From NCBI GenBank assembly GCA_964484395.1, contig CAZAFM010000002.1, positions 1 to 42,163 of the forward strand: a DNA stretch of 42,163 nucleotides. The letters are read 5' to 3'. Below, in pieces: positions 15,408 to 36,058 of the stretch. The first letter of the stretch is position 1, and each line of letters begins with the position of its first letter. The stretch comes from an uncultured Campylobacterales bacterium (GTDB taxonomy: Bacteria > Campylobacterota > Campylobacteria > Campylobacterales > CAZAFM01). The notes under the pieces are model-generated. The model did not search any database. It was given only the letters and a program-made list of their open reading frames with translations, and had not been told where the DNA came from. Position numbers and translations under genes: made by a program.

Positions 15408-15408
15408 A

Positions 15409-18856: not shown

Positions 18857-19246
18857 ATGACTCATATAGAGACCGCACATCCGTATTTTGGGGTGTTTGT
18901 GTTTTTTGTACTCACTTTTGGTGCATTTTTCGCAACACTTCTTTTGACAAGATTTATCAGTGGAAAGCTAGCTAGAAAAGATACTGAGAAGTTAAAACTA
19001 GCTATGTATGAGTGTGGTCCTGAACCCACGAAACAACCAAACAAAGTTTCGGTTCAGTGGTATATGCTCGCACTTCTATTTATTATATTTGATGTGGAGA
19101 TTATATTTATGTTTCCTTGGGCTGTTGATTTTAAGATACTTGGTTGGTTTGGATTTGCAGCTATGTTTATATTTTTACTACTACTAACTATTGGTTTTGT
19201 ATATGAGTGGAAGAAAGGAGCACTAGAATGGCGCAGCATAAAATAA
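18857..19246 (+). CDS. nuoA: NADH-quinone oxidoreductase subunit A
   Basis: 129 aa with three TM segments and the YECGPEP motif typical of NuoA/ND3. AAGGAGAGG RBS upstream. Confidence 0.92.
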
Positions 19247-19737
19247 ACTACTTTAAAGACAGTGGGCTACCAGTTGTTTTAACAACAGTAGATCACCTCC
19301 TTAATTGGGGTAGAAGTAACTCTTTGTGGGCATTAACCTATGGGCTTGCTTGCTGTGCTATTGAGATGATGGCAAGTGGTGCTAGTAGATATGACTTTGA
19401 TAGGTTTGGTACTATCTTTAGAGCTAGTCCTAGACAATCAGACCTCTTAATTCTCTCAGGTACTCTTACAAAAAAGCACGCTGAGTTCTTAAGAAGACTC
19501 TATGATCAAATGCCAGATCCTAAGTGGGTTATCAGTATGGGAAGTTGTGCAAATACAGGTGGTATGTTTAATACCTATGCAACAGTTCAAGGTGTTGATA
19601 GGATAGTTCCTGTTGATATATATCTTCCTGGATGTGCTCCTAGACCTGAATCACTTCAGTATGCAGTTATGATGCTTCAAAGAAAGATAAGAAGTCAAAA
19701 AGCTTCAAAAAGAGCTCCAGAAAAGAGGTTTGTCTAA
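19228..19737 (+). CDS. nuoB: NADH-quinone oxidoreductase subunit B
   Basis: It carries the [15 protein letters not shown] and LPGCAPRPE motifs (N2 cluster ligands). I prefer the ATG at 19228, which gives MAQHKINYF and has an AAGGAG RBS 8 nt upstream, over the GTG at 19207 from the ORF track. Confidence 0.95.
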
Positions 19738-20540
19738 TGAGAGAGTTTAAGCCAAAAGATAATGTTCAAAAAAAGTCATACTACACTGATAGGTTTTGGG
19801 TTGCACCAAAGGTTCCTAGAGAGAAGCCAGAAGATAGTGAGGTTTTTAGAAGTAATCTTGAAGAGATAAAGTCAATTGTATCCATAAAAGATGCTTTTAT
19901 AGAGCTTGGAAATCTTGTGCTTATAGTTGAGCACCAAGAGCTTCACTCTTGCATAAAAGCTCTAAAAGAGAGACTAAAATATGATATTCTAACAGAAATG
20001 AGTGCAATTGACTATTTAGCTAAATGTGATGGTTTTGAGCTTTTTTATCAAATGCTAAATATACAAAAAGCAAAGAGAGTAAGAGTTAAGTGCTTTTTGC
20101 CAAAAAATCATGCAGGAGAGAGTGTAAGTGATCTTTTTAGATCTGCTGATTGGGCTGAGCGAGAGTGTTATGATATGTTTGGAATAAGATTCAACAATCA
20201 TCCACATCTAAAGCGAATCCTTATGCCTGATGATTGGGAAGGTCATCCACTACTTAAAAGCTACCCACTTCATGGAGATGATTTTGCTCAGTGGTATGAG
20301 GTGGATAAGATATTTGGAAAAGAGCATAGAGAGCTTATTGGACCAGAAAATAGAGATGGCGCATTAATAGATAGATATGATACGCATAGATTTGCTAGGA
20401 TTGGTCATGAAGTTCCTTTTGGAGAGGATATTAGTGAGGGTGAGCCTGATACTGAGATAAGGTATTATGAGGATAAGAGACCTCCATTACTACCTGATTA
20501 CAAGCCTGAAAACTCAAAACAGCTAAAAGTTAGAAAGTAG
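19737..20540 (+). CDS. nuoC: NADH-quinone oxidoreductase subunit C
   Basis: 267 aa with the [15 protein letters not shown] motif. The start overlaps the nuoB stop (TAATG). Confidence 0.93.
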
Positions 20541-20548
20541 GGGAGAAT

Positions 20549-21781
20549 ATGCAACAACCAAATAGACTTGAACCCTTTTATGAAAATATAAATTTTGATA
20601 GAGTTGATAACACTATGGTTGTCAACTTCGGTCCTCAACACCCTTCAGCCCATGGTCAGCTAAGACTAATGCTAGAGCTTGAGGGTGAGCAGGTTATAAA
20701 AGCTTATCCAGATATTGGTTATCTTCACAGAGGTATGGAGAAGATGGCTGAAAATATGATTTATAATGAGTTCCTACCTACTACTGATAGGATGGATTAT
20801 ATTGCAGCTAGCTCTAACAACTACGCCTTTGCTTTAGGAGTTGAGAGGTTACTTGGAATAGAAAATGATATACCAAGACGAGCTAAGATAATAAGAACCA
20901 TGCTTTTGGAGCTAAATAGAATAGCATCTCACCTTTTTTGGCTTGCTACTCATGCACTTGATGTTGGGGCTATGAGTGTTTTTCTTTTTTGCTTTAGAGA
21001 GAGGGAGTTTGTGCTTGATCTTATGGAGGACTATTGTGGAGCTAGGCTTACACACTCTGCAGTAAGAATCGGTGGAGTTCCACTAGATCTTCCTGAAGGG
21101 TGGACTAACCAGCTTAGAGACTACTTGGATAAGTTTCCTGAAGCTATTGCTGATTATGAAGGGTTATTAGATCAAAACCGTATCTGGAGAATGAGACTTG
21201 ATGGAGTTGGTATTTTAACTCCTGATGACGCTAAGAACTGGGCGTGTTCGGGTATTATGCTAAGAGGAAGTGGTATTAAGTGGGATATTAGAAAAGAGGA
21301 GCCTTATGAGCTATATGATGAACTTGATTTTGAGGTTCCAGTAACTGATACTTGTGATAGTTATGGTAGATATAAGCTCTACTTAGAAGAGATGAGGCAA
21401 TCTACAGATATTCTCTATCAGCTTTTAGATATGTATAGTGAAAGTGAGCCTGGACTTATGGCACATGCTCCAAAATATATATCAGCTACTAAAGAGGATA
21501 TGATGACTCAAAACTACTCTTTAATGCAACACTTTGTACTTGTTACTCAAGGTATGAGACCACCTATTGGAGAGGTTTATGCACCTACTGAGTCTCCTAA
21601 GGGAGAGCTTGGGTTTTTTATAAGAAGTGAGGGAGAGCCATATCCATATAGGCTAAAAGTTAGAGCACCTAGCTTTTATCACACTGGACTTTTAAACGAC
21701 CTTCTACCAGGACACTATTTGGCTGATGTTGTAACAATTATCGGTACTACAAATATTGTCTTTGGTGAAGTAGATAGATAG
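20549..21781 (+). CDS. nuoD: NADH-quinone oxidoreductase subunit D
   Basis: 410 aa with [17 protein letters not shown] and the C-terminal GEVDR motif. Confidence 0.97.
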
Positions 21782-21790
21782 GAGTTGATG

Positions 21791-22021
21791 ATGAAAAGGT
21801 TTGATCTTAGACATCTTAAGAGTGATTTTGAAGAGAGAATGAAAGAGCTTTTAAGTCGTGACCTAAAGGACGGTGAAGTTGGTATTTTTATGTTTGAAAT
21901 TGGTGATTTTACGCCTGTGCAAAAAAGTGCTGATACTATCAAAGAGCTAGGTCATGAGCTTCTAAACTCTTTAAAATTCAACGAAGTTGACTGGACTATA
22001 GTTGTAAGGAAGTGCGCTTGA
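21791..22021 (+). CDS. small Cys-poor protein occupying the NuoE position (epsilonproteobacterial NuoE replacement, Cj1575c/HP1264-like by position)
   Basis: The ORF track starts at TTG 21785, followed by tandem ATGs at 21788 and 21791. I chose 21791 for its spacing to the AGGAG at 21780..21784. The product has 76-78 aa and a single Cys (penultimate residue), so it cannot ligate a NuoE-type [2Fe-2S] cluster. It sits between nuoD and the NuoF-position gene. Confidence 0.6.
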   Translation: MKRFDLRHLKSDFEERMKELLSRDLKDGEVGIFMFEIGDFTPVQKSADTIKELGHELLNSLKFNEVDWTIVVRKCA

Positions 22022-24015
22022 GTGCATTTTTGTTTACTGCTTGGAAAGATCAAGTAATAGATAATAGAGGCAAGCCAAAGGAGTCTTGGGAGGAGTGTTC
22101 TTTCAAGCTACCAGCTGACTTTTACGGAGGTACTAAATCTAAAGCCTTTGTAGGTTGGGATGGATTTGCCATTTTTGATGATAGTGTAGATGTTATCAAG
22201 CTCCTAAAAGAGTATGCTCTGCAGTATCAAAACTACTCAGAAGCCTGTGGAAGATGTGCTCCTGGAAGATGGGGTGGACAGGTTTTGCATGATGTGCTTG
22301 ATAAAGTAGCTAGAGGAGAGGGTCAAAGAAGTGATCTTGATCAGCTCAAAAGCTCTTGTAATATGATGAAAGAGACTAGTAAATGCGAGATAGGTAGGAC
22401 TGTTCCTATCTCTATACTTAAAGCTTTGGAGTATTTTAATGATGAATTTGAAAAAGCAATCTCCTCTAAAGCTCCAAGTAGTGGATATGAGAAGGATAGT
22501 AGCTTTTTTAAAGCAAAAGTAACAGCACCTTGTATTGATGCTTGCCCTGCTCATGTTGATATACCAGCATATATTGAGGGTGTGAGGGATTTAAGATATG
22601 ATGACTCTTTGAGGGCAACTAGAAAAACAATGCCTTTAGCTCATACTTGTGGAAGAGTGTGTCCGCATCCTTGTGAGAGTGAGTGTAGACGAGAAAACCT
22701 AGATAGTGCTATTTCTATTATGGAGTTAAAAAGAATTGGGGCTGATTATGAGGATGAGTTTGATAAAAAGTGGCTCCATCCACAAGAACAAAAACCAAGT
22801 AATGGAAAAAAAGTAGCAGTTATAGGTTCAGGTCCTGCTGGTCTAACGGGAGCATATTACTTAGCGCTTGAAGGTGTAGAGTGTGATGTATATGAAGAGC
22901 TTCCAGTTCTAGGTGGTGAAGTAGCAGTTGGAGTTCCAGAATATCGAATGCCTATAGGAAAGTACAATGAAGATATAGAGCTTGTAAAATCAGTTGGTGT
23001 GAACTTTATCACAAATACAAAAGTAGATGCTGAGATGATGAGAGAGCTTGAGAGGAAGTATGATGCAATACTCATAGCCACTGGCACAAGACTGTCTAAA
23101 AAAGTTAGAGCAGAGGGTGAAGACCCAAGCTTGGAGGGCTACTGGCCTGCTATTCCTTTTTTAGATCAGATAAATCTACATGACAAATACGGAATAGGTG
23201 AAGCAGTTGATTTAACCGGAAAAACTATAGTGTGTGTAGGTGGTGGTTTTACATCCATGGATGTTGTTAGATGCTCTATTAGAGCAGGAGCTAAAAGAGT
23301 AGTTATGCTCTATAGAAGAGATGAGAAAACCATCATCAAAAACACCTCTTATGAAGAGTATCATGAAGCTGTAGAAGAGGGTGTTGAGTTTGTTTTTCAG
23401 AGTGCTATAAAAAAGATAAATAGCTCAAATGGAAAGATTGATAGTGTAACTTGTGCAATGTATGAGATGGTCTATCCAGAGGATGGAGGAAGACCTCAGC
23501 TTGTTGAGCTAGAAGGGCATGACTACACTATGGAAGTAGACTTCGTGATACCTGCAGTCTCCCAAGATGCTGATCTCTCTCATATCCCGCAAGAATGGGA
23601 GATAGAGCTAACTAGCTGGAATACAATCAAAACTGATGGAAGAACTTACGCTACAAACAGAGCTGGAATATTTGCAGCAGGTGATTGCGAGTATGGTCCT
23701 ATGACTATTGTAAATGCTGTAGGTCAGGCTAAGAGGGCTGCCTCAGTTATGGCTAGATATCTTCAAAGTGGAGAGCTCACTCTTAGTGATGAAGAGATTA
23801 TGGAAGACAACCTAAGAAAACTCAGAGTTTATGACAAAAATGAAGTAGTTAGAGGATGGCTAAAAGGGCTTTCTAGAGAAGAGAGTGAGAAGCTTGCAGT
23901 AGAGATTAGAAAAGATAATAACCAAGAGGTAAACTTTGGTCTAACAAAAGAGCAAGCCATAGATGAAGCAAATAGATGCATGAGATGCTACTATATTGCG
24001 ATGGTTGAGGTGTAG
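22018..24015 (+). CDS. fusion protein at the NuoF position: NuoF C-terminal-tail-like domain plus GltD/NfnB-like [4Fe-4S]/FAD/NAD(P)H oxidoreductase
   Basis: The ORF track starts at GTG 22012. TTG 22018 has better spacing to the AAGGAAG RBS (22006..22012). The N-terminal region GFAIFDDSVDVIKLLKEYALQYQNYSEACGRCAPGRWGG aligns to the NuoF segment ending in ESCG.C.PCR.G, with the third Cys replaced by Gly. This is followed by CIDACPAHVDIP...CGRVCPHPCESECRR (GltD N-terminal Fe-S domain), VAVIGSGPAGLTGAYYLA (FAD GxGxxG), VCVGGGFTSMDV (second Rossmann fold) and GIFAAGDC. No NuoF FMN/NADH glycine-rich motif is visible. Confidence 0.75.
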   Translation: MSAFLFTAWKDQVIDNRGKPKESWEECSFKLPADFYGGTKSKAFVGWDGFAIFDDSVDVIKLLKEYALQYQNYSEACGRCAPGRWGGQVLHDVLDKVARGEGQRSDLDQLKSSCNMMKETSKCEIGRTVPISILKALEYFNDEFEKAISSKAPSSGYEKDSSFFKAKVTAPCIDACPAHVDIPAYIEGVRDLRYDDSLRATRKTMPLAHTCGRVCPHPCESECRRENLDSAISIMELKRIGADYEDEFDKKWLHPQEQKPSNGKKVAVIGSGPAGLTGAYYLALEGVECDVYEELPVLGGEVAVGVPEYRMPIGKYNEDIELVKSVGVNFITNTKVDAEMMRELERKYDAILIATGTRLSKKVRAEGEDPSLEGYWPAIPFLDQINLHDKYGIGEAVDLTGKTIVCVGGGFTSMDVVRCSIRAGAKRVVMLYRRDEKTIIKNTSYEEYHEAVEEGVEFVFQSAIKKINSSNGKIDSVTCAMYEMVYPEDGGRPQLVELEGHDYTMEVDFVIPAVSQDADLSHIPQEWEIELTSWNTIKTDGRTYATNRAGIFAAGDCEYGPMTIVNAVGQAKRAASVMARYLQSGELTLSDEEIMEDNLRKLRVYDKNEVVRGWLKGLSREESEKLAVEIRKDNNQEVNFGLTKEQAIDEANRCMRCYYIAMVEV

Positions 24016-24016
24016 T

Positions 24017-26269
24017 ATGGAGAAGTTTTCTTTTGTAATAAACAATGAACCTATAGTAGCAACAAAAGGGCAGACTATCCTAGAAGCGGCAAGAGAAGCT
24101 GGAATCTATATACCTACACTATGCTACTTACCAAAGCTAGAGCCTATCTCATCATGTCGATTATGTGTGGTTGAAGTTGAAGGACAAGATGGGTTTGTAC
24201 TTAGCTGTCAAACTCCAGCAATTGAAGGAATAGAGGTTAGGGTAGATAGTGAAGCACTAAAAGAGTATAGGACTCAGATAATGAAGTTTTACTGCATAAA
24301 CCACCCACTTGAATGCGGAGTGTGTGATCAAAGTGGTGAGTGCGGTTTGCAAAATATGACTTTAGAGCTTGGAGTAGATAATCAAGAGTTTATGGCAAAA
24401 GAGAAGAAGAGAGATTTGAGTGATTGGGGGCTTTTGCAGTATGATGAGAGTCTATGTATCTTGTGTGAACGATGTGTTCATACTTGTAATGAGATAATAG
24501 GTGATGATGCTATCAAAATCTCTTATGGTGGCTACTCTTCAAAGATAGTTCCTTATAATGGCGAGAGCTTGGAGTGTAGTGATTGTGGTGAGTGTGCTGA
24601 GGTCTGTCCTGTAGGAGCGATTATTGTCAAAGACTTTCAGTATAGCTCAAATGCGTGGGAGTTAGATAAGATAGATTCAACTTGTGCTCATTGCTCAAAT
24701 GGATGCTATATAGAGTATGAAGTAAAGCAAGAGGGTACACTTAATAAAGATAGTTATAAAATCTACAGAACTGCATCTGATGCAGATTTCTCATATCTCT
24801 GCGGTGCAGGTAGATTTGGCTATGACTTTGAGAATAGAGCCTCTAAAGATAGTTCAGCTTTTAGTAACGCTCTAGAAGCCTTCAAAAAAGCAGATACTAT
24901 AGCCTTTGATAGCTATATCACTAATGAAGAAGCTTTGATTTTACAAAAACTAAAAGAGAAGCTAGGAGTTAAGCTAGTAAACAAAGATGCACTAGCCTAT
25001 CAAAACTTCTTAAAAGAGTTTAGCTTAAAATCTAAAAAAAGCCTATATGATGGGGATTTAGAAGATATAAAAAGATCAGGTCTAGTAGTTCAAGTAGGTT
25101 CAAGAAGTAGGGATAATCACCCTGGAATTAGATACGCTATAAATGAAGCTATAAAAAAGCAAGGAGCCCTCTTTGTTGATTGTCACCCAGTAGAAGATAC
25201 TGAGATAGAGAAGTCACTGCATATCAAATATGAAGCAGGTTGCGAAGAAGCCCTCATAGCACTTATTGCAAAAGCAGTAGTTTCAAAAGATAGTAGCACT
25301 CAGAGCTTTTTTGACGCACTTGATGTTGGATATTTGCAGGCTGAAGCCAATATATCTGAAAAAGAGATAGAAAGAGTAGAAAAAGAGTATAAAAAAAGAA
25401 CTCACAAAACCCTAATAATAGGCTCTGACCTCTACACTCACAAAAGATCAAAAAACATAGCCAAACTAGTAGGTCTTATAGAAGCAAATAGTGACTTTAA
25501 AGTAATACTAATACCAACCTCTACTAACACTCTTGGAGTATCATTAATATGTGATTTAGACAAAGAAGAGGGAAGCTATACTGTAGGTTATAATGTAGAA
25601 GGAGACTTCAAACTCTCCTCTTTAGGAGATGGTGAGCTTGATATGCCAGCTCTAAATCAACAAGAGGGAACATTTACTAATATAGACAAAAGAGTAGTAA
25701 AACTAAACCCCGCCCTACCATATAGTGGATATGAGCTAAATGATATAGCAAAAGCTCTAGGTTTAACTAACAAACACACTATAGATTATACAAAAGAGCT
25801 TCCAGAAGCTAAGGGGTATAAATCTATAGAGTTTGACCAACTTCCTAACTCATTTTTAAATAATGGAAAAGAGGATAGAGGATATCTACTACAAAACATA
25901 GATTGCCCAAGTGAAGAAAACTCCTCAATAGAGCCAATAGAAGAGCTAGAAGAGTATAATGGAACAATTATATATCTATCAAACCCAATACTGCAGTTTA
26001 ATAGATATACGGCAAAGGCTAGTACACTTAAAGGCGGTGGTGATATACTAAGAGCCTCAAAACAGTTTATGGTAGCTGCAAAACTTCAGAGTGAAGGAGT
26101 TGTAAGACTTGAAGGTGAAGGTGTAAAAAGAGAGATAAGGTTAGAGGTTGATGACTCTTTAAAAGGAACTATCGCTCTTTTTCCACATTTTGATGATCCA
26201 AGTTTAGATGGAGAGTATAAGTACAAAAGAGTAGAAATTACAAATTTATCGGTGGGTAGAGATGAGTAA
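24017..26269 (+). CDS. nuoG: NADH-quinone oxidoreductase subunit G paralog 1
   Basis: I prefer the ATG at 24017 (MEKFSFVINNEP), 1 nt after the upstream stop, over the TTG at 23996. It has a [2Fe-2S] motif (CYLPKLEPISSCRLCVVEV...C), the His-ligated cluster motif NHPLECGVCDQSGEC, CILCERCVHTC, CSDCGECAEVCPVGA and CAHCSNGC...C (N7-like). A molybdopterin-oxidoreductase-like C-terminal half follows. Confidence 0.85.
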   Translation: MEKFSFVINNEPIVATKGQTILEAAREAGIYIPTLCYLPKLEPISSCRLCVVEVEGQDGFVLSCQTPAIEGIEVRVDSEALKEYRTQIMKFYCINHPLECGVCDQSGECGLQNMTLELGVDNQEFMAKEKKRDLSDWGLLQYDESLCILCERCVHTCNEIIGDDAIKISYGGYSSKIVPYNGESLECSDCGECAEVCPVGAIIVKDFQYSSNAWELDKIDSTCAHCSNGCYIEYEVKQEGTLNKDSYKIYRTASDADFSYLCGAGRFGYDFENRASKDSSAFSNALEAFKKADTIAFDSYITNEEALILQKLKEKLGVKLVNKDALAYQNFLKEFSLKSKKSLYDGDLEDIKRSGLVVQVGSRSRDNHPGIRYAINEAIKKQGALFVDCHPVEDTEIEKSLHIKYEAGCEEALIALIAKAVVSKDSSTQSFFDALDVGYLQAEANISEKEIERVEKEYKKRTHKTLIIGSDLYTHKRSKNIAKLVGLIEANSDFKVILIPTSTNTLGVSLICDLDKEEGSYTVGYNVEGDFKLSSLGDGELDMPALNQQEGTFTNIDKRVVKLNPALPYSGYELNDIAKALGLTNKHTIDYTKELPEAKGYKSIEFDQLPNSFLNNGKEDRGYLLQNIDCPSEENSSIEPIEELEEYNGTIIYLSNPILQFNRYTAKASTLKGGGDILRASKQFMVAAKLQSEGVVRLEGEGVKREIRLEVDDSLKGTIALFPHFDDPSLDGEYKYKRVEITNLSVGRDE
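24800..25048 (+). repeat. 249-bp block, 100% identical to 27108..27356
   Basis: I compared the two copies base by base. The block is in frame in both nuoG paralogs and encodes CGAGRFGYDFENRASKDSS...SLKSKKSLY. The flanking sequence is diverged on both sides. Confidence 0.95.
25404..26023 (+). repeat. 620-bp block identical to 27862..28481 except for one synonymous mismatch
   Basis: I compared the two copies base by base at an offset of 2458 nt. The only difference I found is 26005 A versus 28463 G (AGA versus AGG, both Arg). The block is in frame in both paralogs (KTLIIGSDLYTHKRSK...NRYTAKAS). Confidence 0.93.
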
Positions 26270-28718
26270 AGTTACAATTCATATTGATGGAAGACCAATA
26301 GAGTGCAATGAGGGTGAGTATGTCCTTGATGTTGCAAGAGGTGAGGGGATATTTATTCCAGCTATATGCTATCTAAATAGATGTTCTCCAAGTCTAGCTT
26401 GCAGGATATGTATGGTAGAGAGTGATGGTAAGAGTGTGTATGCATGTAATGCAAAAGCAAAAGATGGCATGAATATTACAGTATCTACTCCTGAGATTGA
26501 GGAGGAGAGACGAAATATTATGGAAGTGTATGACATTAACCATCCTCTTCAGTGTGGAGTATGTGATCAAAGTGGTGAGTGTGAGCTTCAAAACTACACT
26601 CTAGAGATGGGAGTAGAAACCCAAAACTTTAGCATTCAAGACACTGCTAGACCAACAAAGGAGTGGAGTGATTTTATTACTTATGACTCATCGTTGTGTA
26701 TAGTATGTGAGAGATGTACTACAGTCTGTAAAGATATGGTAGGTGACATGGCTCTAAAAACCATACCTAGGGGTGGTGAGCAACTAGATAAAGGACTAAA
26801 AGAGACTCTTAGTAAAGATCTCTTTGCTATGTGGAATAAGATGCAAAAGTCCATAATAGGTCCTGTAAGTGGTGAGCGTTTGGAGTGTAGTGATTGTGGT
26901 GAGTGCATATCTGTATGTCCTGTGGGAGCTATTAGTAGTAGTGGTTTTAGCTACAGCTCAAACGCGTGGGAGCTAGAGAAAACACCTAGTGCTTGTGCGC
27001 ACTGCTCTATAGCATGCTTGCTAAACTATGAGACAAAACACACTTCAGTAAGTAATAGTAGACCTAAAATCTATAGGGTAACTAATGATTTTGCCTTTCA
27101 ATCTCTTTGCGGTGCAGGTAGATTTGGCTATGACTTTGAGAATAGAGCCTCTAAAGATAGTTCAGCTTTTAGTAACGCTCTAGAAGCCTTCAAAAAAGCA
27201 GATACTATAGCCTTTGATAGCTATATCACTAATGAAGAAGCTTTGATTTTACAAAAACTAAAAGAGAAGCTAGGAGTTAAGCTAGTAAACAAAGATGCAC
27301 TAGCCTATCAAAACTTCTTAAAAGAGTTTAGCTTAAAATCTAAAAAAAGCCTATATAGTGCCTCTTTAGAAGATGTTTATAATGCAGATTTCACAGTAGT
27401 AGTTGGTTCAAACCTTAAAAGTGATGCGCCAATACTTAAATATGCACTAAATAACTCTTTGAAAATCAACAAGGCTGCTAGTGCTTATTTTCACACCTTA
27501 AAAGACGCACAAATAGAATCAACCTCTAAAAATCTCTCCTCTTTTACCTATCTGCCAAACCAAGAGGAGAAGCTACTCTATCTTCTTGCAGATTCATTCA
27601 TAGAGGAAGATAGAAAGCCAACTGAGCTAAAAGAGCAAACAGATAAGTTTAAATCTAAAAAAATAAAGCAGACAGAAGAGAAGATAAAAGAGAAGATAAA
27701 AGAGGTAGTAGAGGTAGATGGTGAGAGTAAAGAGGTAGAAAAAGTAGTCGAAAAAACTATCACAAAAGAGGTAGAGTACATTCACAACTCCCTACTTGAT
27801 ACCCTAAATATTTCTCATACTGACTTTGCTACCTTACTATCTACATTGAGTAAAAAAGAGAACAAAACCCTAATAATAGGCTCTGACCTCTACACTCACA
27901 AAAGATCAAAAAACATAGCCAAACTAGTAGGTCTTATAGAAGCAAATAGTGACTTTAAAGTAATACTAATACCAACCTCTACTAACACTCTTGGAGTATC
28001 ATTAATATGTGATTTAGACAAAGAAGAGGGAAGCTATACTGTAGGTTATAATGTAGAAGGAGACTTCAAACTCTCCTCTTTAGGAGATGGTGAGCTTGAT
28101 ATGCCAGCTCTAAATCAACAAGAGGGAACATTTACTAATATAGACAAAAGAGTAGTAAAACTAAACCCCGCCCTACCATATAGTGGATATGAGCTAAATG
28201 ATATAGCAAAAGCTCTAGGTTTAACTAACAAACACACTATAGATTATACAAAAGAGCTTCCAGAAGCTAAGGGGTATAAATCTATAGAGTTTGACCAACT
28301 TCCTAACTCATTTTTAAATAATGGAAAAGAGGATAGAGGATATCTACTACAAAACATAGATTGCCCAAGTGAAGAAAACTCCTCAATAGAGCCAATAGAA
28401 GAGCTAGAAGAGTATAATGGAACAATTATATATCTATCAAACCCAATACTGCAGTTTAATAGGTATACGGCAAAGGCTAGTGAGCTTAGTAGTGAACTAT
28501 ATCTATCTATCTCAAAGACTCTTGCAGAGGAGCTTGGTGTAGAGAGTAAAGATGTGCTAACCCTAAGTAGTGAGGGCGGCAGTATAAGTTTAGAGTGTGT
28601 AGTAGATAGCTCTCTTGTTAATAGTGCGGTTTTAGTTCCAGATTTTATTCAATCTAAAGATATTGATACTCTTTTTAAACAGAGTAGATATATCAAAGCA
28701 GACATAAGGAAGGTGTGA
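26262..28718 (+). CDS. nuoG: NADH-quinone oxidoreductase subunit G paralog 2
   Basis: 818 aa with the same full set of Fe-S motifs as paralog 1 (CYLNRCSPSLACRICMVE, NHPLQCGVCDQSGEC, CIVCERCTTVC, CSDCGECISVCPVGA, CAHCSIAC). The N-terminal 290 aa are only moderately similar to paralog 1. It contains a K/E-rich insertion and overlaps paralog 1 by 8 nt. Confidence 0.85.
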   Translation: MSKVTIHIDGRPIECNEGEYVLDVARGEGIFIPAICYLNRCSPSLACRICMVESDGKSVYACNAKAKDGMNITVSTPEIEEERRNIMEVYDINHPLQCGVCDQSGECELQNYTLEMGVETQNFSIQDTARPTKEWSDFITYDSSLCIVCERCTTVCKDMVGDMALKTIPRGGEQLDKGLKETLSKDLFAMWNKMQKSIIGPVSGERLECSDCGECISVCPVGAISSSGFSYSSNAWELEKTPSACAHCSIACLLNYETKHTSVSNSRPKIYRVTNDFAFQSLCGAGRFGYDFENRASKDSSAFSNALEAFKKADTIAFDSYITNEEALILQKLKEKLGVKLVNKDALAYQNFLKEFSLKSKKSLYSASLEDVYNADFTVVVGSNLKSDAPILKYALNNSLKINKAASAYFHTLKDAQIESTSKNLSSFTYLPNQEEKLLYLLADSFIEEDRKPTELKEQTDKFKSKKIKQTEEKIKEKIKEVVEVDGESKEVEKVVEKTITKEVEYIHNSLLDTLNISHTDFATLLSTLSKKENKTLIIGSDLYTHKRSKNIAKLVGLIEANSDFKVILIPTSTNTLGVSLICDLDKEEGSYTVGYNVEGDFKLSSLGDGELDMPALNQQEGTFTNIDKRVVKLNPALPYSGYELNDIAKALGLTNKHTIDYTKELPEAKGYKSIEFDQLPNSFLNNGKEDRGYLLQNIDCPSEENSSIEPIEELEEYNGTIIYLSNPILQFNRYTAKASELSSELYLSISKTLAEELGVESKDVLTLSSEGGSISLECVVDSSLVNSAVLVPDFIQSKDIDTLFKQSRYIKADIRKV
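27108..27356 (+). repeat. second copy of the 249-bp identical block (partner 24800..25048)
   Basis: See the partner feature. The offset between copies is 2308 nt. Confidence 0.95.
27862..28481 (+). repeat. second copy of the 620-bp block (partner 25404..26023)
   Basis: See the partner feature. The offset between copies is 2458 nt, with one mismatch. Confidence 0.93.
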
Positions 28719-29707
28719 TGGAAGGTTACATAATTGGTACAATAATCAAAGTCTTAATAATCCTACTTGTCTTTTCAGCAGTTGCTGGATTTTTGACATA
28801 TATGGAGAGGAAAGTATTGGCATTTATGCAAAGAAGGTTAGGACCTACTGTTGTTGGACCCTTTGGTGTGCTTCAGATACTAGCTGATGGTATAAAGCTA
28901 GCTACAAAAGAGGATATAGTTCCTCAGAATGCTTTAAAACCTGTCTTCTTGTTTGCTCCAATTATTACAGCAGCTACAGCATTTATTGCGATGGCACCTA
29001 TTCCATTCTTCCCTGAGTTTGAGATGTTTGGAATTACGGTTAGACCTATTGTTGCTGATATTAATGTGGCTTTACTTTTTGTTTTTGGTGTAGCTGCAGT
29101 TGGTATTTATGGGATTTTACTAGGTGGTTTGGCATCTAATAACAAATGGTCACTTCTTGGAGCTGCTAGGGCTACTATTCAGCTTCTTAGCTTTGAGATT
29201 ATCTCAGGATTATCAATTTTGGCTCCAATTATGATTATAGGCTCACTCTCATTGATTGACATCAATAATCATCAAGATGGTGGGATTTTCTCTTGGCTTA
29301 TATGGCAACAGCCTGTTGCATTTATCCTATTCCTAATAGCTGGGTATGCTGAGACAAATAGGACTCCATTTGACCTTCTTGAGCATGAAGCTGAGATTAT
29401 TGCAGGGTATGGAACTGAGTACTCTGGGATGAGATGGGGTATGTTTTTTATAGGGGAGTATGCAAACCTTATAACATTAGCATTTTTAGCCAGCCTCATA
29501 TTTTTGGGTGGGTTTAACCCTCTTTGGTTTATTCCTGGAGGTATAGCAATACTTCTTAAGGTTTTCTTTTTCTTGTTTTTGTTTATGTGGGTAAGGGCTG
29601 CATGGCCACACATAAGACCAGATCAGCTTATGTGGTTGTGCTGGAAGGTGCTAATGCCAATAGCTTTGGTGAATATACTAATAACTGGCCTAGTGCTGAT
29701 GATATAA
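28718..29707 (+). CDS. nuoH: NADH-quinone oxidoreductase subunit H
   Basis: It has the [14 protein letters not shown] motif, is polytopic, and has an EYS/GM.W..FF..EY region. The ORF begins GTG-ATG (28715/28718). I chose the ATG, which overlaps the nuoG2 TGA. Confidence 0.95.
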
Positions 29708-29717
29708 GGAGAGATTG

Positions 29718-30305
29718 ATGAGTATAGAGTATAAGCACATAGATATAAACCCTTCTCCTAAAAAGCCATGGCAGCAGTTCATGCAGGTTATGAGTAGAAC
29801 CTTTAAAAGAGAGCTTTTTGTAGGATTGGGGATTGTTTTTAGAGAGATGGTAAAAAGAGGCAACTCACACGCAACGCAGTATCCAAAAGAGAAGCTTCCT
29901 ATAAGTCCAAGATATAGAGCTATACATGAGCTACTAAGACTATTAGAGAGTGGACATGAGAGATGCATTGGGTGTGGACTTTGCGAGAAGATATGTATAA
30001 GTAACTGTATCAGAATGGACACTCACAAGGGTGAGGATGGAAGGAAAAAGATTAGTGAATATACAATTAACTTTGGTAGGTGTATTTTTTGTGGTTACTG
30101 TGCTGAGGTTTGCCCAGAGCTTGCTATTGTTCATGGTGGGAGATATGAAAATGCAAGTGAGCAAAGAGCGCACTTTGGACTTAAAGAGGATATGTTAACA
30201 CCAATTGATATGTTTAAAAACGGTTCACAAAAAGAGTTCCCTGGATTTGGTGCACCAAGTCCTGATGCTGATTCTAGAATCAAAAAAACGCCACTGGCAT
30301 ACTAA
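29718..30305 (+). CDS. nuoI: NADH-quinone oxidoreductase subunit I
   Basis: It has two ferredoxin-type motifs, [11 protein letters not shown] and [12 protein letters not shown]. The ORF begins TTG-ATG (29715/29718). I chose the ATG. Confidence 0.95.
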
Positions 30306-30315
30306 GGATTGAAAT

Positions 30316-30906
30316 ATGTATGAAACTATAGCTTTTTATATTTTTGGAGCCCTCAGTGCAGCGATGTTCTTGATGACGGTCACTACCAAAAATGTCATTT
30401 ACGCCTTAAGTACACTTGCTGCTGGAATGATTTTTATATCAGCTTTTTTCTTTCTTTTAGATGCTGAGTTTTTAGGGGTTGTTCAGATAGTCGTCTATAC
30501 AGGAGCTGTTATGGCACTATATGCATTTGGTATGATGTTTTTTGATACTATCAAAGATGTTGATGAAAAGGTAGAAAATCCAAGGCAACTCTTCTTATAT
30601 ACTGGTCTTTCAGCTCTTATGATTGTACTTATCTTTTCAGCACCTATTATTGGTGATAATCTAATTACGCAAAATCCTATACCTGAAGATATGGGAAATA
30701 TTGAAGCTATTGGACTTGTGATTTTTACTAAGTATCTAGTTCCTTTTGAGCTTGCAGCTGTGATGCTTCTAGTGGCTATGATTGCTGGTATTATCTTGGC
30801 TGGTAAAAAGATGGATCAGAGTCTTACACTAATGTGTGAAGAGGATGAGAACATAGAAAAAGATGACTACATCAAGGTTAAAAAACACAAAGGAGCAGCT
30901 AAATGA
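30316..30906 (+). CDS. nuoJ: NADH-quinone oxidoreductase subunit J
   Basis: 196 aa and hydrophobic, with five predicted TM segments. The VVYTGAVM motif and its position between nuoI and nuoK support the call. Confidence 0.9.
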   Translation: MYETIAFYIFGALSAAMFLMTVTTKNVIYALSTLAAGMIFISAFFFLLDAEFLGVVQIVVYTGAVMALYAFGMMFFDTIKDVDEKVENPRQLFLYTGLSALMIVLIFSAPIIGDNLITQNPIPEDMGNIEAIGLVIFTKYLVPFELAAVMLLVAMIAGIILAGKKMDQSLTLMCEEDENIEKDDYIKVKKHKGAAK

Positions 30907-31205
30907 TAACACTTCATCACTACCTCTTTTTGAGCGCACTCCTCTTTTTTATAGGGGTGTTTGGAGTTCTAAGAAGAAAAAACTTACTGCTGCTCTTTTT
31001 TGCAACAGAGATTATGCTAAATGCGGTAAATATAGGCTTTGTAGCACTATCTCACTATATGTTTGACTTAACTGGGCAGATTTTTGCGTTTTTCATCATT
31101 GCGGTTGCTGCTTCTGAAGTTGCTGTTGGTTTGGGACTTGTCATACTCTGGTATAAGAGAAAAGGCACACTAGACCTAGATACTCTAAAAAGCATGAACG
31201 GATAA
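30903..31205 (+). CDS. nuoK: NADH-quinone oxidoreductase subunit K
   Basis: 100 aa with three TM segments and the AA.E.A.GL motif (VAASEVAVGLGLV). It overlaps nuoJ by ATGA. Confidence 0.95.
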   Translation: MITLHHYLFLSALLFFIGVFGVLRRKNLLLLFFATEIMLNAVNIGFVALSHYMFDLTGQIFAFFIIAVAASEVAVGLGLVILWYKRKGTLDLDTLKSMNG

Positions 31206-31214
31206 AGGATAGAT

Positions 31215-33050
31215 ATGGAGTTACTAGTATATATTGCACTTTTTTCACCACTCCTAGGAGCGATAATAGCGGGTGCTTTTGGTACAAGACCTAAAATAAC
31301 AGCACTAGGTGTGATAAACTCAGCGCTTTTAGGTCTATCTTTTGTATCTACGCTTATTCTTTTTATTTTTGTGGTGCAGGGTTTTAAGTTTGAGACGGTA
31401 CTTTTTGAGTGGATAGCAACTGGAGGTCTATATATTCCTTTTGGATTTGTAGTTGATCAAGTAAGTGGAACTATGATGCTTGTAGTAACTCTTGTTTCTA
31501 CATGTGTTCATATCTACTCAATTGGATATATGGAGCATGACAAAGGCTACAACAGATATTTCTCATATTTATCGGCATTTGTTTTTTCAATGATGGTTCT
31601 TGTTATGAGTGATAACTTCGCGGGACTATTTATAGGCTGGGAAGGTGTTGGTCTTTGCTCTTGGCTTCTTATAGGTCACTGGTATGATAGGGATAGTGCA
31701 TCTTGGGCTGCAAATGAAGCGTTTATTATGAACCGTGTGGCTGACCTTGGGATGCTTTTTGGTATGTTTATCATCTACTGGACATTTGGAACACTACAGT
31801 ATAATGAGGTTTTTGCTCAAGTAGATGGGGCAAATGGTTATGTGTTAACCTTAATAGCAGTTTTCTTGTTTATTGGTGCTATGGGTAAATCAGCTCAGTT
31901 TCCTTTTCATACATGGCTTGCTGATGCGATGGAGGGTCCAACTCCAGTCTCAGCACTAATCCACGCCGCTACTATGGTAACAGCTGGTGTTTACTTAGTT
32001 ATAAGATCATTTGAGATATTTGCTCTAACACCTGAGGTGTCTATGTTTATCGCCTATCTTGGAGCATTTGTTGCTATATTTGCAGCATCTATGGCATTAG
32101 TAAATGATGATTTAAAAAGAATTATTGCTTATTCAACTCTTTCACAGTTAGGATATATGTTTGTGGCAGCTGGAATAGGTGCATACTGGATAGCGCTTTT
32201 CCACCTTATGACTCATGCATTTTTCAAATCCCTTCTTTTCTTAGGAGCTGGAAATGTAATGCATGCTATGCATGATAAGCTTGATATAAAAAAGATGGGA
32301 CAACTATATAAGCCTATGAGATGGACAGCTATTTTGATGATTATAGCTTCACTTGCCCTTGCTGGTATCTATCCATTTGCAGGCTTCTTCTCAAAAGATT
32401 TGATACTTGAAGAGGCATTTACTGGAAGCCACTTTATACTGTGGTTAATCCTTTGGGTTGCTGCTGGTATGACGGCATTTTATAGTTTTAGACTTATTAT
32501 GCTTGTCTTCTTTGGTGGTAAAAACCACAATGACCATCCACATGAAGCACACAACTATGTACTTTGGGCGATGGTACCACTTGCAGTCTTGGCAGTTATT
32601 GCAGGCTTTTTTCAGCATCCATTTTTTGAGTATGTGCAAAAGGTGCTACCGGGCAATCGTAATATGATAGATAGTACGACCTTTGCTGTACTTGTAGCTC
32701 TGGCTCTTACTATGGGTGTTGGTGGTACACTCATAGCCATATTTAAGTACAAAAAACCATACAATAATGACAAGCCTAGAGGCTTCTTATATAGACTGTT
32801 AAAAAATCAGTACTACATACCATCTTTTTATGAAGAGAGTATTACAAAGCCATACTTTAGGCTATCAAGATTTGCTTGGAAAGAGATTGATATGAGGATT
32901 GTGGATGCTACGGTTGACTTTATTGCTACTTTTATCTACAGAAGCGGTGACAAAGCAAGGGTTATGCAAAGTGGTAATCTTTCACTGATGTTAAGATGGA
33001 TGGCTTTAGGTCTAATATTTATCTTAATACTTGCATACACATTTAGGTAA
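31215..33050 (+). CDS. nuoL: NADH-quinone oxidoreductase subunit L
   Basis: 611 aa antiporter-like subunit with WEGVGLCSWLLIGHWY, KSAQFPFHTWL and PTPVSALIHAATMV motifs. Confidence 0.96.
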   Translation: MELLVYIALFSPLLGAIIAGAFGTRPKITALGVINSALLGLSFVSTLILFIFVVQGFKFETVLFEWIATGGLYIPFGFVVDQVSGTMMLVVTLVSTCVHIYSIGYMEHDKGYNRYFSYLSAFVFSMMVLVMSDNFAGLFIGWEGVGLCSWLLIGHWYDRDSASWAANEAFIMNRVADLGMLFGMFIIYWTFGTLQYNEVFAQVDGANGYVLTLIAVFLFIGAMGKSAQFPFHTWLADAMEGPTPVSALIHAATMVTAGVYLVIRSFEIFALTPEVSMFIAYLGAFVAIFAASMALVNDDLKRIIAYSTLSQLGYMFVAAGIGAYWIALFHLMTHAFFKSLLFLGAGNVMHAMHDKLDIKKMGQLYKPMRWTAILMIIASLALAGIYPFAGFFSKDLILEEAFTGSHFILWLILWVAAGMTAFYSFRLIMLVFFGGKNHNDHPHEAHNYVLWAMVPLAVLAVIAGFFQHPFFEYVQKVLPGNRNMIDSTTFAVLVALALTMGVGGTLIAIFKYKKPYNNDKPRGFLYRLLKNQYYIPSFYEESITKPYFRLSRFAWKEIDMRIVDATVDFIATFIYRSGDKARVMQSGNLSLMLRWMALGLIFILILAYTFR

Positions 33051-33062
33051 GGAGAGTAGAGA

Positions 33063-34580
33063 ATGGAATTTATTTTATCTATATTGATATTTTTTCCGAT
33101 GGTAGCGGGACTTCTTGGGCTTATTATTAGAGAGCACACAAGGACTTACGCTATTGTGGTTGCAGCCATTGAGTTTATACTCTCTTTAGTTCTATGGGCT
33201 AGGTTTGATAGTAGTAACCCTGGGATGCAGTTTATTGAGAAGTTACCACTAGTTCCTGATTTTGGTATTAACTACTTTGTGGGTGTTGATGGTATATCTC
33301 TGTTTTTAGTTGTACTTACTACATTTATTACTCTTCTTGGGATTATAGGGCTTAGCGAAAAAAGACAGATTAAAAACCTTGTGATAACACTACTCTTTTT
33401 AGAGAGTATCATGGTAGGTGTCTTTTTAGCACTTGATGCAATACTCTTTTATATATTCTGGGAGCTTTCACTTGTGCCAATGCTCTATATTATAGGTGCA
33501 TGGGGTAGTGGTAGAAGAATATACGCAGCTATTAAGTTCTTCTTGTATACTTTTACAGGTTCTCTTATAATGCTAGTAGGTATGCTTGTAGTTGCATATA
33601 AATACTATCTAGCTACTGGAATGTGGAGCTTTAGTATACTTGATTGGCATATGCTTATACTTCCATTTGACCTTCAGTGGTGGTTGTTTTTGGCGTTTTT
33701 TATTGGGCTTGCGGTCAAAGTTCCTATGTTTCCATTTCATACATGGCTACCATATGCGCATGGTCAAGCACCAACTATAGGTTCAGTCATACTAGCAGCA
33801 GTTCTCCTTAAGATGGGTACATACGGTTTTGTGCGTCTCTCCTTGCCAATGTTTCCAGATGCAGCAGTAGCTTTTATTATGCCAGTGGCAATATTGTCAC
33901 TGATAATGATAATCTACACTGCACTCATAGCATTTGCACAAGAGGATATGAAGCAGGTTATTGCTTATAGTTCTATCTCTCATATGGGTGTTATTATGAT
34001 AGGTATATTTGCTCTAAATGTAGAAGGGATTACTGGGTCTATATTTTTTATGCTCTCTCACGGTATAGTTAGTGCAGCCCTGTTTATGCTAGTTGGGGTG
34101 ATATATGACCGGCGAAAAACCAAACTTATGAGTGAGTTTGGAGGACTTGCAACATCAATGCCAATGTTTGCTACTATGTTTGGACTAATGCTTATGGCTT
34201 CAGTTGGACTTCCTTTGACTATGGGGTTTGTGGGTGAGTTCTTAAGTTTACTTGGTTTTTATCAAATATCTCCTTTTATGACTATCTTAGCAGGGACTAG
34301 TATCATACTTGGAGCAGTCTATATGCTTCATTTATATAGGAAGTCATTTTTTGGGAAGCTAACAAATGATGCTAATAAAAACCTAAAAGACCTAAATAAG
34401 AATGAGCTAATGGCTTTAGTGCCGATGGCTTTAGTTGTTATCTGGCTTGGTATCTATCCAAAACCAGTTCTATCTCCAATTGATACAAGCGTAAAATCGC
34501 TTGTTGATTTGATGGAGAAAAAATCCATAACAGTTGAAGCAAAAGAGACACTGTTAAAAGCTAAAGTGGAGGTGAAGTAA
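33063..34580 (+). CDS. nuoM: NADH-quinone oxidoreductase subunit M
   Basis: 505 aa antiporter-like subunit with [13 protein letters not shown] and AYSSISHMG motifs. Confidence 0.95.
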
Positions 34581-36058
34581 TGGATTTTGTAAATATATCT
34601 ATTGAAGCACTAAATATGCCTTCACTATACCCTGTTATGGTGACTATAGTGGGTGCACTTGTGATTTTGGGGATTGATCTTTTTAGTAAAAACACTTCTA
34701 GAAGCTTCTATACAATACTTACTATTGTGTTTTTACTACTAGATGTAGGTGTTGTCATATCTTATAGTGGCGGACTTAGAGGCTTTTTTGATGTGATGCT
34801 CTTAGATGGTTTGTCTATTTTGTCGCAGGTTATAATGCTTATAGCCTCAGCTCTGTTTATCTTACTAGCCCTAACTTCTAAGAGATATCATGAGTACTCA
34901 TATCCTGAGTACTATGCACTCTTTTTGTTTATGATAGCAGGTTTTCAGTTTATGGTTAGCTCAGATAACCTTATACTGATATTCTTAGGACTTGAGACAG
35001 CAAGTCTCTCACTATATGCTATTATTGCTATGCATAATAGAACTTCAGCCTTTGAAGCAGCTATTAAGTACTTTACTATGGGTGCAATGGCTGCAGGCTT
35101 ATATGCCTTTGGCTCTATGATATTGTATGGAGTTAGTGGAACTGTTGAGATATACAAAATAGCAGAGGCAGTAGCCCTAAATGGAGAGTCTTTGATGCTA
35201 TTTGTAGGTGTTGGCTTCATATTAGCATCTATTGGGTTTAAGGTTGGGCTATTTCCTTTTCACACTTGGGTGCCTGATGTCTATGAGGGTTCTAGTGCGG
35301 CAGTTGCAGGCTATCTGTCTATAGTTCCAAAAATAGCCGCTTTTGTTGTTGCTATAAGGTTTTTTGAGTTTTTTATAGACTTAGATATATTGTGGGTTAG
35401 GGATGTTTTATACATTATCACAGTTCTTACAATGACTTTACCAAATATGATGGCATTAGTTCAAAGTGATGTCAAACGAATGCTAGCATATAGCTCCATA
35501 TCTCATGCAGGATTTGCTCTAGCTGCTATTATGATTGCAACGACTCAGTCTAATAGTGCATTTTTCTTGTATTGGTCTCTGTTTTTGTTTACTAATCTAG
35601 GTGCGTTCACTATGCTTTGGGTGTCAAGACATAAAAAACATGTGTGGGATGATAGGTTTGACCATCCATATGAGAAGTTTTCAGGACTTATCAAGATAAT
35701 GCCTGTAGGTGCTATAATAATGGCTATTTTTATGTTATCTTTAGCTGGGCTGCCTCCATTTGCACTTTTTTGGGGCAAGTTATATCTTATGAGTTCTGCG
35801 GTTAATGCTGATTATGTGATACTAGCACTTATCATGGCGATAAATAGTGCAATAAGTGCATACTACTACTTAAAGCTAATAGTATATATGTTCTTAAAAG
35901 ACCCAATTGTAGATACAAATACAGCATATATGAGAAATGCATCACTAGCTCTAAAAACAGTACTTGGTATATCTGCTATAGTTGTGTCATTCTCATTTTT
36001 AATTGTTTCGCCTCTACTAAATATAATCTATCAGTATGTTCTTAAGAGTGGCTTCTGA
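34580..36058 (+). CDS. nuoN: NADH-quinone oxidoreductase subunit N
   Basis: 492 aa antiporter-like subunit with [18 protein letters not shown] and AYSSISHAG motifs. The start overlaps the nuoM stop (TAATG). Confidence 0.95.

Follow-up and report, generated by a model that had tools for sequence, protein, structure and literature searches.

Evidence for recurrent segmental gene conversion between the tandem nuoG paralogs of a two-NuoG complex I in Campylobacterota

In Sulfurimonas denitrificans, the NuoE and NuoF subunits of complex I are replaced and two distinct NuoG copies are present, which are both expressed and share 36% identity (bioRxiv 10.1101/717884). The same preprint reports that the longer NuoG copy (Suden_1822) has two extra regions, and it proposes that the complex runs in reverse, reducing ferredoxin and NAD(P)+ for the reverse tricarboxylic acid (TCA) cycle. 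For the two-NuoG, non-canonical complex I of chemoautotrophic Campylobacterota, it cites Weerakoon & Olson 2008 and Sievert et al. 2008. In the present study, we analyzed a 42,163-nt stretch of DNA from an uncultured Campylobacterales bacterium (contig CAZAFM010000002.1 of assembly GCA_964484395.1; hereafter the window), which is apparently a whole metagenomic contig and carries two adjacent nuoG genes, nuoG1 (G1) and nuoG2 (G2). The locus resembled that of S. denitrificans in having the same operon, with NuoE and NuoF replaced and a nuoG pair made up of a short and a long gene. It differed in that the S. denitrificans copies, at 36% identity, share no tracts, which agreed with our survey, where the Sulfurimonadaceae were unconverted.

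Gene conversion between bacterial paralogs is well known from tufA/tufB, the rRNA operons, and the bab and hop genes of Helicobacter pylori. Our literature search found no mention of conversion or of identical segments between nuoG paralogs; the process is of a known kind, and the system is one for which no report of conversion was found. We found that nuoG1 and nuoG2 of the non-canonical two-NuoG complex I of Campylobacterota stem from an ancient tandem duplication and that two segments of the pair were practically identical at the nucleotide level within otherwise strongly diverged genes. This two-block pattern very probably resulted from gene conversion between the diverged paralogs, in the form of recurrent segmental concerted evolution.

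Two homogenized blocks in diverged genes

A sequence-only reading of the window had reported two nucleotide-identical tracts shared by the paralogs, and direct string comparison bore this out exactly (Table 1). Block A comprised 249 nt with 0 mismatches and could not be extended by one base at either end. Block B matched at 619 of 620 nt, and its sole difference was the synonymous one already reported, which was also seen in the co-linear locus L001. The diverged surroundings and the unequal spacers (355 versus 505 nt) were confirmed as well: at all four block boundaries, identity fell from 100% to approximately 50% within a few bases. Outside the blocks, nucleotide identity was approximately 58% in the iron-sulfur (Fe-S) domain and 47% in the tail, and the spacer contained a 150-nt indel; the corresponding protein identities were 48% in the N-terminal region, 23% in the spacer and 26% in the tail. 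A repeat search recovered both block pairs, which lay 2308 nt (block A) and 2458 nt (block B) apart as direct repeats, and no third copy within the 42-kb window. Approximately 39% of nuoG1 (869/2253 nt) was thus homogenized. The codon alignment covered 2220 nt with 620 discordant sites, and the two longest runs of identity in it measured 601 and 249 nt. As no run exceeded 47 nt in 10,000 site permutations, chance could be excluded.

The synonymous divergence along the genes followed the same pattern. The Nei-Gojobori proportion of synonymous differences (pS) between nuoG1 and nuoG2 was 0.00 in block A and 0.01 in block B, against 0.70 in the N-terminal region, 0.59 in the spacer and 0.56 in the tail. 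This contrast indicated gene conversion rather than constraint at the protein level. We also scored both proteins with paralog-specific hidden Markov models (HMMs) built from unconverted genomes of other organisms. The score differences for G1 and G2 were +136 and -163 bits in the N-terminal region, +68 and -86 bits in the spacer, and +31 and -42 bits in the tail, so that these three regions were classed as G1-type in nuoG1 and G2-type in nuoG2. Blocks A and B scored nearly equally on both profiles, with differences of -4 and -12 bits. Both genes were intact and in place, with flanks of the correct paralog type, and their lengths agreed with those of their orthologs. With 0/249 and 1/620 differences, the last conversion events in the window were very recent.

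A shorter identical patch in the Fe-S region had also been taken as a sign of conversion, and this claim did not hold. The patch (TTGGAGTGTAGTGATTGTGGTGAGTG) encodes the Fe-S cysteine motif LECSDCGEC and is 26 nt long. Across 62 paralog pairs without conversion, the length of the longest exact run had a median of 18 nt and a maximum of 32 nt, and runs of at least 26 nt occurred in 4 pairs. In addition, the first base of the patch was polymorphic between strains (24569 T>C in metagenome runs X2-X4, 26880 T>C in run X1). The length within the unconverted range, together with this polymorphism, indicated that the patch reflected constraint and not conversion.

Table 1. Positions of the nuoG blocks, the complex I genes and other features in the window
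Feature	Position	Strand	Basis or remark
Block A, nuoG1 copy (G1 residues 262-344)	24800-25048	+	Identical to 27108-27356; pS 0.00
Block A, nuoG2 copy (G2 residues 283-365)	27108-27356	+	Direct string comparison
Block B, nuoG1 copy (G1 residues 463-669)	25404-26023	+	619/620 nt identical to 27862-28481; pS 0.01
Block B, nuoG2 copy (G2 residues 534-740)	27862-28481	+	Direct string comparison
Sole paralog-specific difference within the blocks	26005 A / 28463 G	+	Third codon position of Arg, AGA/AGG, synonymous
G1-type spacer, 355 nt	25049-25403	+	23% amino acid identity to G2 spacer; +68 bits for G1 over G2 profile
G2-type spacer, 505 nt, with K/E-rich insertion	27357-27861	+	Paralog-specific profile
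G1-type C-terminal tail, predicted beta-barrel	26024-26269	+	Profile score; AlphaFold2 model
G2-type C-terminal tail	28482-28718	+	Profile score
26-nt patch at LECSDCGEC motif	24569-24594 / 26880-26905	+	Identical in both copies
nuoG1, 750 residues from ATG 24017	24017-26269	+	Pfam Fer2_4, NADH-G_4Fe-4S_3, Fer4_Nqo3
nuoG2, 818 residues	26262-28718	+	Pfam Fer2_4, NADH-G_4Fe-4S_3, Fer4_Nqo3; 8-nt overlap with nuoG1 stop
nuoA	18857-19246	+	Pfam; upstream part of complex I operon
nuoB	19207-19737	+	Pfam
nuoC	19737-20540	+	Pfam
nuoD	20549-21781	+	Pfam
Small non-canonical NuoE-like gene, 78 residues	21785-22021	+	Pfam PF16514 NADH-UOR_E, E=6e-39
NfnB/GltD-like flavoprotein gene, 667 residues, with NuoF-type 4Fe-4S segment, in NuoF position	22012-24015	+	Pfam NADH_4Fe-4S, Fer4_20, Pyr_redox_2
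nuoH, I, J, K, L, M, N (downstream part of operon)	28715-36058	+	Pfam NADHdh, Fer4, Oxidored_q3
TdeIII-family endonuclease gene	23-793		
D12-class N6-adenine methyltransferase gene	809-1930		
N6_N4 methylase gene	1932-2711		

Recurrence and age of the conversion tracts

We surveyed one genome per species and obtained 80 related loci, to which four finished isolate chromosomes were added (Nitratiruptor sp. SB155-2, Nitrosophilus alvini, N. kaiyonis and N. labii). Both genes were complete in 67 of the 80 loci, from Sulfurimonas, Sulfuricurvum, Hydrogenimonas, Nitratiruptor, Sulfurovum and unnamed Campylobacterales, and the two-NuoG tandem architecture was shared by these 67/80. The nearest relative with a long contig (L002) had the same operon and approximately 70% nucleotide identity to the window. 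Within this genome, the identity of G1 and G2 was 88.5% at block B (650 nt) and was raised at block A; elsewhere the two genes could not be aligned by blastn. The amino acid identity between the paralogs of one genome is given in Table 2. In Sulfurimonadaceae-type genomes, which served as the baseline, the identity of the remaining regions was 0.51 (N-terminal), 0.21 (spacer) and 0.27 (tail). In none of the genomes examined was the N-terminal Fe-S region, the spacer or the tail converted above this baseline.

Table 2. Identity between G1 and G2 within single genomes
Genome or locus	Block A, amino acid	Block B, amino acid	Block B, nucleotide
Baseline, Sulfurimonadaceae-type genomes	0.55	0.47	
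Window	1.00	1.00	
L002	0.95	0.94	
L006	0.92	0.98	
L021	0.94	0.97	
L008	0.76	1.00	
L009	0.73	0.86	
L005	0.65	0.73	
Nitrosophilus alvini (finished)	0.99	0.97	97.6% over 619 nt
N. kaiyonis (finished)	0.98	1.00	99.5% over 629 nt
N. labii (finished)	0.76	1.00	100% over 631 nt
Nitratiruptor sp. SB155-2 (finished)	0.84	1.00	99.4% over 633 nt

These comparisons showed that the same two segments were homogenized independently in at least four clades, including finished genomes. The events were judged independent because the block proteins were only 60-70% identical between genomes, the orthologs of congeneric species were saturated at synonymous sites (pS 0.6-0.8), and the trees conflicted between regions. 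Neighbor-joining trees (50 bootstraps) separated all G1 sequences from all G2 sequences with a support of 1.0 for the N-terminal region, 1.0 for the spacer and 0.86 for the tail; for both blocks, the support of this split was 0. In the block B tree, G1 and G2 of the same genome were sisters with a support of 1.0 in the window, L002, L008, SB155-2, N. alvini, L006, L021 and L005. The pS contrast, the permutation result and the tree incongruence therefore agreed with the non-reciprocal recombination that the sequence-only reading had deduced from synonymous identity. In Sulfurimonadaceae, Sulfurovum and Hydrogenimonas, both genes were kept and their blocks were only 45-56% identical; the Sulfurimonadaceae have escaped conversion altogether.

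The identity might also be explained with no recombination at all, by purifying selection combined with codon bias or by an embedded nucleotide or RNA element. It is in keeping with this idea that, even in unconverted genomes, the blocks were more alike between paralogs than the spacer and the tail. However, the blocks had zero synonymous divergence, whereas the Fe-S domain, which is conserved to the same degree or more strongly, was saturated at synonymous sites. The blocks also differed by 30-40% between lineages, which indicated that no fixed nucleotide element was involved. A search for structured RNA in the region gave no Rfam matches. We consider this explanation barely credible.

The tract edges were conserved. 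In all converted lineages, block A lay at approximately reference residues 261-346 and block B at approximately 458-674, with edges within about 5 codons. Partial, shorter and younger sub-tracts were also observed, including one of 365 nt from the same left edge in L005 and one of 165 nt inside block A of SB155-2. The block B pS was 0.00-0.01 in the window (0.01), N. labii, L008 and SB155-2; 0.03-0.10 in N. kaiyonis, N. alvini, L006 and L021; 0.30-0.41 in L005 and L002; and 0.70 in L009. The conversion ages thus formed a continuum across lineages. The two blocks also differed in age within one genome, as the pS values of blocks A and B were 0.33 versus 0.00 in SB155-2 and 0.68 versus 0.00 in L008. 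This indicated that the blocks were converted by separate events and that the longer block B was converted more often. The proposal of a recent recombination event was accordingly right in part: the event was very recent in the window, but it was not isolated, since the same segments were re-homogenized in several lineages.

Two further observations concerned the Nitratiruptor and Nitrosophilus genomes. Synonymous divergence between the nuoG orthologs of two close relatives, L008 and N. labii (L088), was strongly mosaic: pS stood at 0.06 for the G1 tail and 0.13 for block B, at 0.38-0.47 for block A and the G1 N-terminal region, and at 0.57 for the G2 spacer. This pattern suggests that strains have also exchanged sequence by homologous recombination, in addition to the conversion within each genome. 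In addition, the GC content at third codon positions (GC3) of block B was above that of the flanks in Nitratiruptor and Nitrosophilus (L085-L088, L008), for example 0.51 versus 0.29-0.42 in SB155-2. The GC3 of block B was not raised in the window, L002, L006 or L021. GC-biased conversion, of which a possible trace appeared in Nitratiruptoraceae only, was rejected because the signal was inconsistent across genomes.

Operon context, read depth and assembly behavior

In the operon, nuoG1 and nuoG2 follow nuoA-D, the NuoE-like gene and the NfnB-like gene and precede nuoH-N (Table 1). The nuoA-D region matched the Pfam families Oxidored_q4, Oxidored_q6, Complex1_30kDa and Complex1_49kDa, and the assignment of nuoH-N also relied on the co-linear locus L001, where the called genes included matches to Oxidored_q2 and Proton_antipo_M. 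The small NuoE-like gene was likewise found in the L002, Nitratiruptor and Nitrosophilus loci. The Sulfurimonas counterpart of the flavoprotein is Suden_1824, for which the homology to NfnB has been discussed (bioRxiv 10.1101/717884). The window therefore has the two-NuoG architecture, with PF16514, an NfnB/GltD-like protein, and a short (~750 residues) and a long (~820-830 residues) nuoG in tandem. The start of nuoG1 was taken as ATG 24017, and the mechanical open reading frame (ORF) begins at TTG 23996.

Both proteins contained the NuoG N-terminal 2Fe-2S and 4Fe-4S cluster domains according to Pfam and phmmer, and phmmer against the Aquifex NuoG chain 7q5y_A gave E=6e-54 for G1 and 9e-43 for G2. 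The AlphaFold2 model of G1 had a predicted local distance difference test score (pLDDT) of 89 and a predicted template modeling score (pTM) of 0.91. In Foldseek comparisons, its template modeling (TM) scores were 0.73 to Thermus thermophilus Nqo3 (4hea_3, 3i9v_3), 0.75-0.78 to Escherichia coli NuoG and 0.77-0.79 to FdsA. As modeled, the C-terminal region of G1 is a molybdopterin-oxidoreductase-like (MopB-like) fold; the sequence matches to PF00384 and PF01568 in this domain were sub-threshold only. Block A starts directly after the fourth and last Cys of the N7-type cluster motif, which is the start of the MopB-like domain, and block B covers most of the remainder of that domain, with the terminal beta-barrel forming the unconverted tail. 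In the G2 spacer, an insertion at approximately residues 440-520 contained a strongly charged K/E-rich stretch (…KIKQTEEKIKEKIKEVVEVDGESKEVEKVVEKTITKEVEY…), which matches the part of Suden_1822 for which the literature notes no obvious motif.

An exact match to the nuoG2 protein was found in GCA_046542465.1, and a second protein search for nearer G2 orthologs returned nothing above 62% identity. An exact look-up of the nuoG1 protein in public records gave no match, and this is probably due to public assemblies breaking inside nuoG1. The nuoG2 contig of GCA_046542465.1 begins at window position 25950, 55 nt before the A/G difference, a distance that marks a break in a k=55 graph.

The copy number of the blocks was assessed from read data. 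The locus was found in four independent microbial-mat and hypersaline-lake metagenome runs (X1-X4), all seen as Logan contigs or unitigs. In the best run, X1, which contained 97% of the sampled words, the unitig graph reproduced the window piecewise. The unique parts had a depth of 6.3-8.6, and the shared unitigs of block A (249 nt) and block B (601 nt) had depths of 15.9 and 15.5, respectively; the block B unitig ended exactly at the A/G difference. These unitigs thus had double the depth of the unique parts, which means that the genome holds two copies of each block and that the duplication did not arise in assembly. In block A, position 24997/27305 was C in both copies of the window and A in the double-depth unitig of X1 and in L001. 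This co-varying single-nucleotide polymorphism (SNP) between strains that are 99.95% identical suggests very recent homogenization.

Several points weigh against the interpretation as conversion, or limit it. The depths in X2-X4 were low (3-9x) and noisy, and a clean twofold depth of the blocks was not obtained in all of them. The linkage of the spacers to their genes rests on the contig as given and on orthology, as it cannot be read from the unitig graph. In short-read data, repeat collapse or bubble popping can make the interior of the blocks look more exactly identical than it is. When a repeat collapses, a de Bruijn assembler assigns one consensus to both copies and may thereby mask a few interior SNPs that distinguish the paralogs. 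The surviving A/G difference lies 18 nt from the block edge, where such an assembler can still phase, and the co-varying SNP is open to the same caveat. Finally, neither the paralog-specific HMMs nor P0001, a transcript described below that is itself chimeric, gave an indication of the donor, as the blocks carry no paralog-type signal (-4 and -12 bits versus >100 in the N-terminal region).

Taken to its limit, the caveat of repeat collapse would mean that the blocks are single-copy or diverged and were duplicated or homogenized by the assembler. The window does resemble a metagenomic contig, the public assemblies of the same species are broken or chimeric at the repeats, and collapse forces an identical consensus. 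However, both blocks were at twice the unique depth in run X1, the same mosaic was found in four finished isolate chromosomes, and partly decayed versions (L002 at 88% nucleotide identity, L009 and N. alvini) are beyond the making of any assembler. An assembly artifact is therefore highly improbable.

The hazard for short-read assembly that had been predicted from the repeats was real, as seen in the break of GCA_046542465.1 and in three chimeric sequences. L003 (GCA_048618415.1, contig JBMCDF010000160.1, positions 1-2654) comprised block A, the G1 spacer and block B, followed by the G2 tail and nuoH; this chimeric NuoG is annotated as 'ferredoxin, partial' in the public metagenome-assembled genome. 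L004, a Logan contig of SRR21542053, was a G1/G2 chimera joined via block B in the same form. P0001, a eukprot Trinity transcript (TRINITY_DN3071_c0_g1_i2), was likewise a G1/G2 chimera, whose tail was 54% identical to G2 and 25% to G1. P0001 was also the closest relative of nuoG1, with 92% identity in the N-terminal region; as its source was a eukaryote transcriptome assembly, a close relative of the bacterium would be a symbiont, prey or contaminant of that eukaryote. An exact 37-mer of block B had no match in JGI metagenome contigs.

A single chimeric nuoG produced by deletion between the direct repeats had also been predicted, and contigs of this form do exist. Repeated unequal crossing-over, in which deletion to a single chimeric nuoG is followed by re-duplication, could in principle homogenize the blocks, and direct repeats 2308 and 2458 nt apart are an ideal substrate for it, with L003, L004 and P0001 as apparent products. 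However, the chimeric Logan unitig had a depth of 6.87, compared with approximately 7.0 expected for a collapsed two-copy repeat (unique flanks 4.4-4.8x), which did not fit a single-copy deletion allele. In the same run, G1-upstream, G2-upstream and G2-spacer unitigs were all present. The depth and the persistence of the parts that a deletion would remove indicated that the L003, L004 and P0001 forms are to be read as assembly chimeras. For L003 and L004, both a true deletion of 2458 bp and an extended conversion tract were thus rejected, and of the earlier prediction only the existence of such contigs stood. Unequal crossing-over would also homogenize the sequence between and beyond the junctions, but the spacers and tails were anciently diverged and of the correct type in every genome. 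We therefore regard it as very unlikely.

Other features of the window were noted beside the operon. An apparent type II restriction-modification cluster (positions 23-2711) adjoins metK. Pfam gave no match for two adjacent ORFs of 170 and 165 residues (14895-15906), which are flanked by a Maf-like flagellin-modification gene (12901-14859) on one side and an AP-endonuclease-2/xylose-isomerase-like TIM-barrel gene on the other.

Proposed mechanism, the question of selection and known systems

On the reading as gene conversion, misaligned direct repeats would recombine homologously, and a segment of one paralog would be copied onto the other without crossover. Two MopB-like segments, of approximately 83 codons (block A) and 207 codons (block B), would thereby evolve in concert, each event resetting them to nucleotide identity, presumably in a RecA-dependent manner. 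The Fe-S domain, the spacer with its 150-nt indel and the tail may be too diverged for strand exchange, and they are probably functionally specialized as well. Tracts would then begin and end only where the paralogs are still similar enough, which would produce two self-perpetuating islands with sharp, conserved edges, and lineages whose blocks had drifted too far, such as the Sulfurimonadaceae, would escape conversion. RecA-type strand exchange and the cause of the tract stop, which may be loss of homology, selection or both, are inferred. A programmed, cassette-type conversion similar to pilE/pilS, in which silent cassettes donate in one direction to a single expressed gene for a variable surface protein, was rejected: both copies are full-length, co-oriented and in one operon, no further copies were found in the window, and the nuoG products are cytoplasmic redox subunits.

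It is possible, although we give it limited credence, that the identity is maintained by selection because both NuoG paralogs present the same surface to a shared partner or to each other. Conversion would then be the vehicle of co-adaptation and function would set the edges, which extends the explanation by gene conversion and does not deny it. Several results are consistent with this idea. Clades with a difference of 30-40% in their blocks share the edges to within about 5 codons, and neutral erosion would shrink the islands from the edges inward. The spacer and block B were about equally conserved among orthologs (0.65 versus 0.63), yet their identity between paralogs was 0.21 versus 0.47; a spacer that is conserved among orthologs yet paralog-specific indicates that the flanks are specialized and not merely fast-evolving. 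After conversion, the protein stayed nearly identical while synonymous sites drifted, with a proportion of nonsynonymous differences (pN) of 0.02-0.03 at a pS of 0.41-0.50 in L002 and a pN of 0.09 at a pS of 0.70 in L009. The block edges also match secondary-structure and sub-domain boundaries in the G1 model. On the other side, pN/pS in the blocks after conversion did not fall below the level of ordinary orthologs (for block B, a pN of 0.13-0.14 with pS saturated), and special purifying selection on the blocks after conversion was therefore rejected. Moreover, the blocks of Sulfurimonadaceae, Sulfurovum and Hydrogenimonas are only 45-56% identical, which shows that identity is dispensable for function in general.

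In its specific form, this idea would make the islands a shared MopB-like docking module of approximately 290 residues, which faces the same partner or the other paralog and in which selection favors conversion. We put this forward tentatively and consider it rather unlikely. If it were true, the never-converted Fe-S domain, spacer and tail would carry the paralog-specific functions, the island pattern would be a sequence-level map of subunit architecture for an enzyme without a solved structure, and the loss of conversion in Sulfurimonadaceae would mark a change of architecture.

Gene conversion in this system is of interest in several respects. A role in providing the reverse TCA cycle with reduced ferredoxin and NAD(P)H has been proposed for the two-NuoG complex I. 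The mosaic divides NuoG into interchangeable (A, B) and paralog-specific (Fe-S, spacer, tail) parts, which can guide mutagenesis and modeling. Because the repeats break or chimerize short-read assemblies, automated annotation can report a spurious single nuoG. The pattern is unusual in combining two islands within strongly diverged genes, edges conserved across families, all stages of decay and an escaped clade in a core respiratory enzyme. It is an exceptionally clean natural case of segmental concerted evolution in bacteria and makes models of sequence-dependent conversion and of duplicate escape testable on real genomes, including cultured strains.

Two known cases and a body of theory can be compared with the nuoG pair. 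For babA/babB and related paralogs that encode outer-membrane proteins in H. pylori, Pride & Blaser (J Mol Biol 2002) reportedly described segmental concerted evolution. That case also belongs to Campylobacterota, and in it one part of the gene is homogenized within the genome and the other is paralog-specific, with conflicting trees. It differs in that the genes are dispersed and encode surface adhesins, and conversion serves antigenic or adhesion variation within strains, whereas nuoG1 and nuoG2 are adjacent core respiratory genes with two islands and a never-converted spacer, and the pattern is shared across families. For tufA/tufB of Salmonella and E. coli, gene conversion was reportedly described by Abdulkarim & Hughes in 1996. 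Non-reciprocal exchange likewise keeps those housekeeping duplicates nearly identical, including at synonymous sites; its RecA-dependence is a feature of tuf and would apply to nuoG by inference. In tuf, however, the whole coding sequence is homogenized and the products are equivalent, whereas only approximately 39% of nuoG1 is homogenized and the proteins are otherwise 20-50% identical. The theory of sequence-dependent gene conversion and the escape of duplicates is said to go back to Walsh (1987) and Teshima & Innan (2004). It holds that conversion continues only above a similarity threshold for recombination, that sharp mosaic boundaries arise when selection favors divergence in parts of a gene, and that a lineage may escape permanently; all three patterns were seen here. 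Those studies are models, whereas the nuoG islands and the escape of the Sulfurimonadaceae were observed on a real phylogeny.

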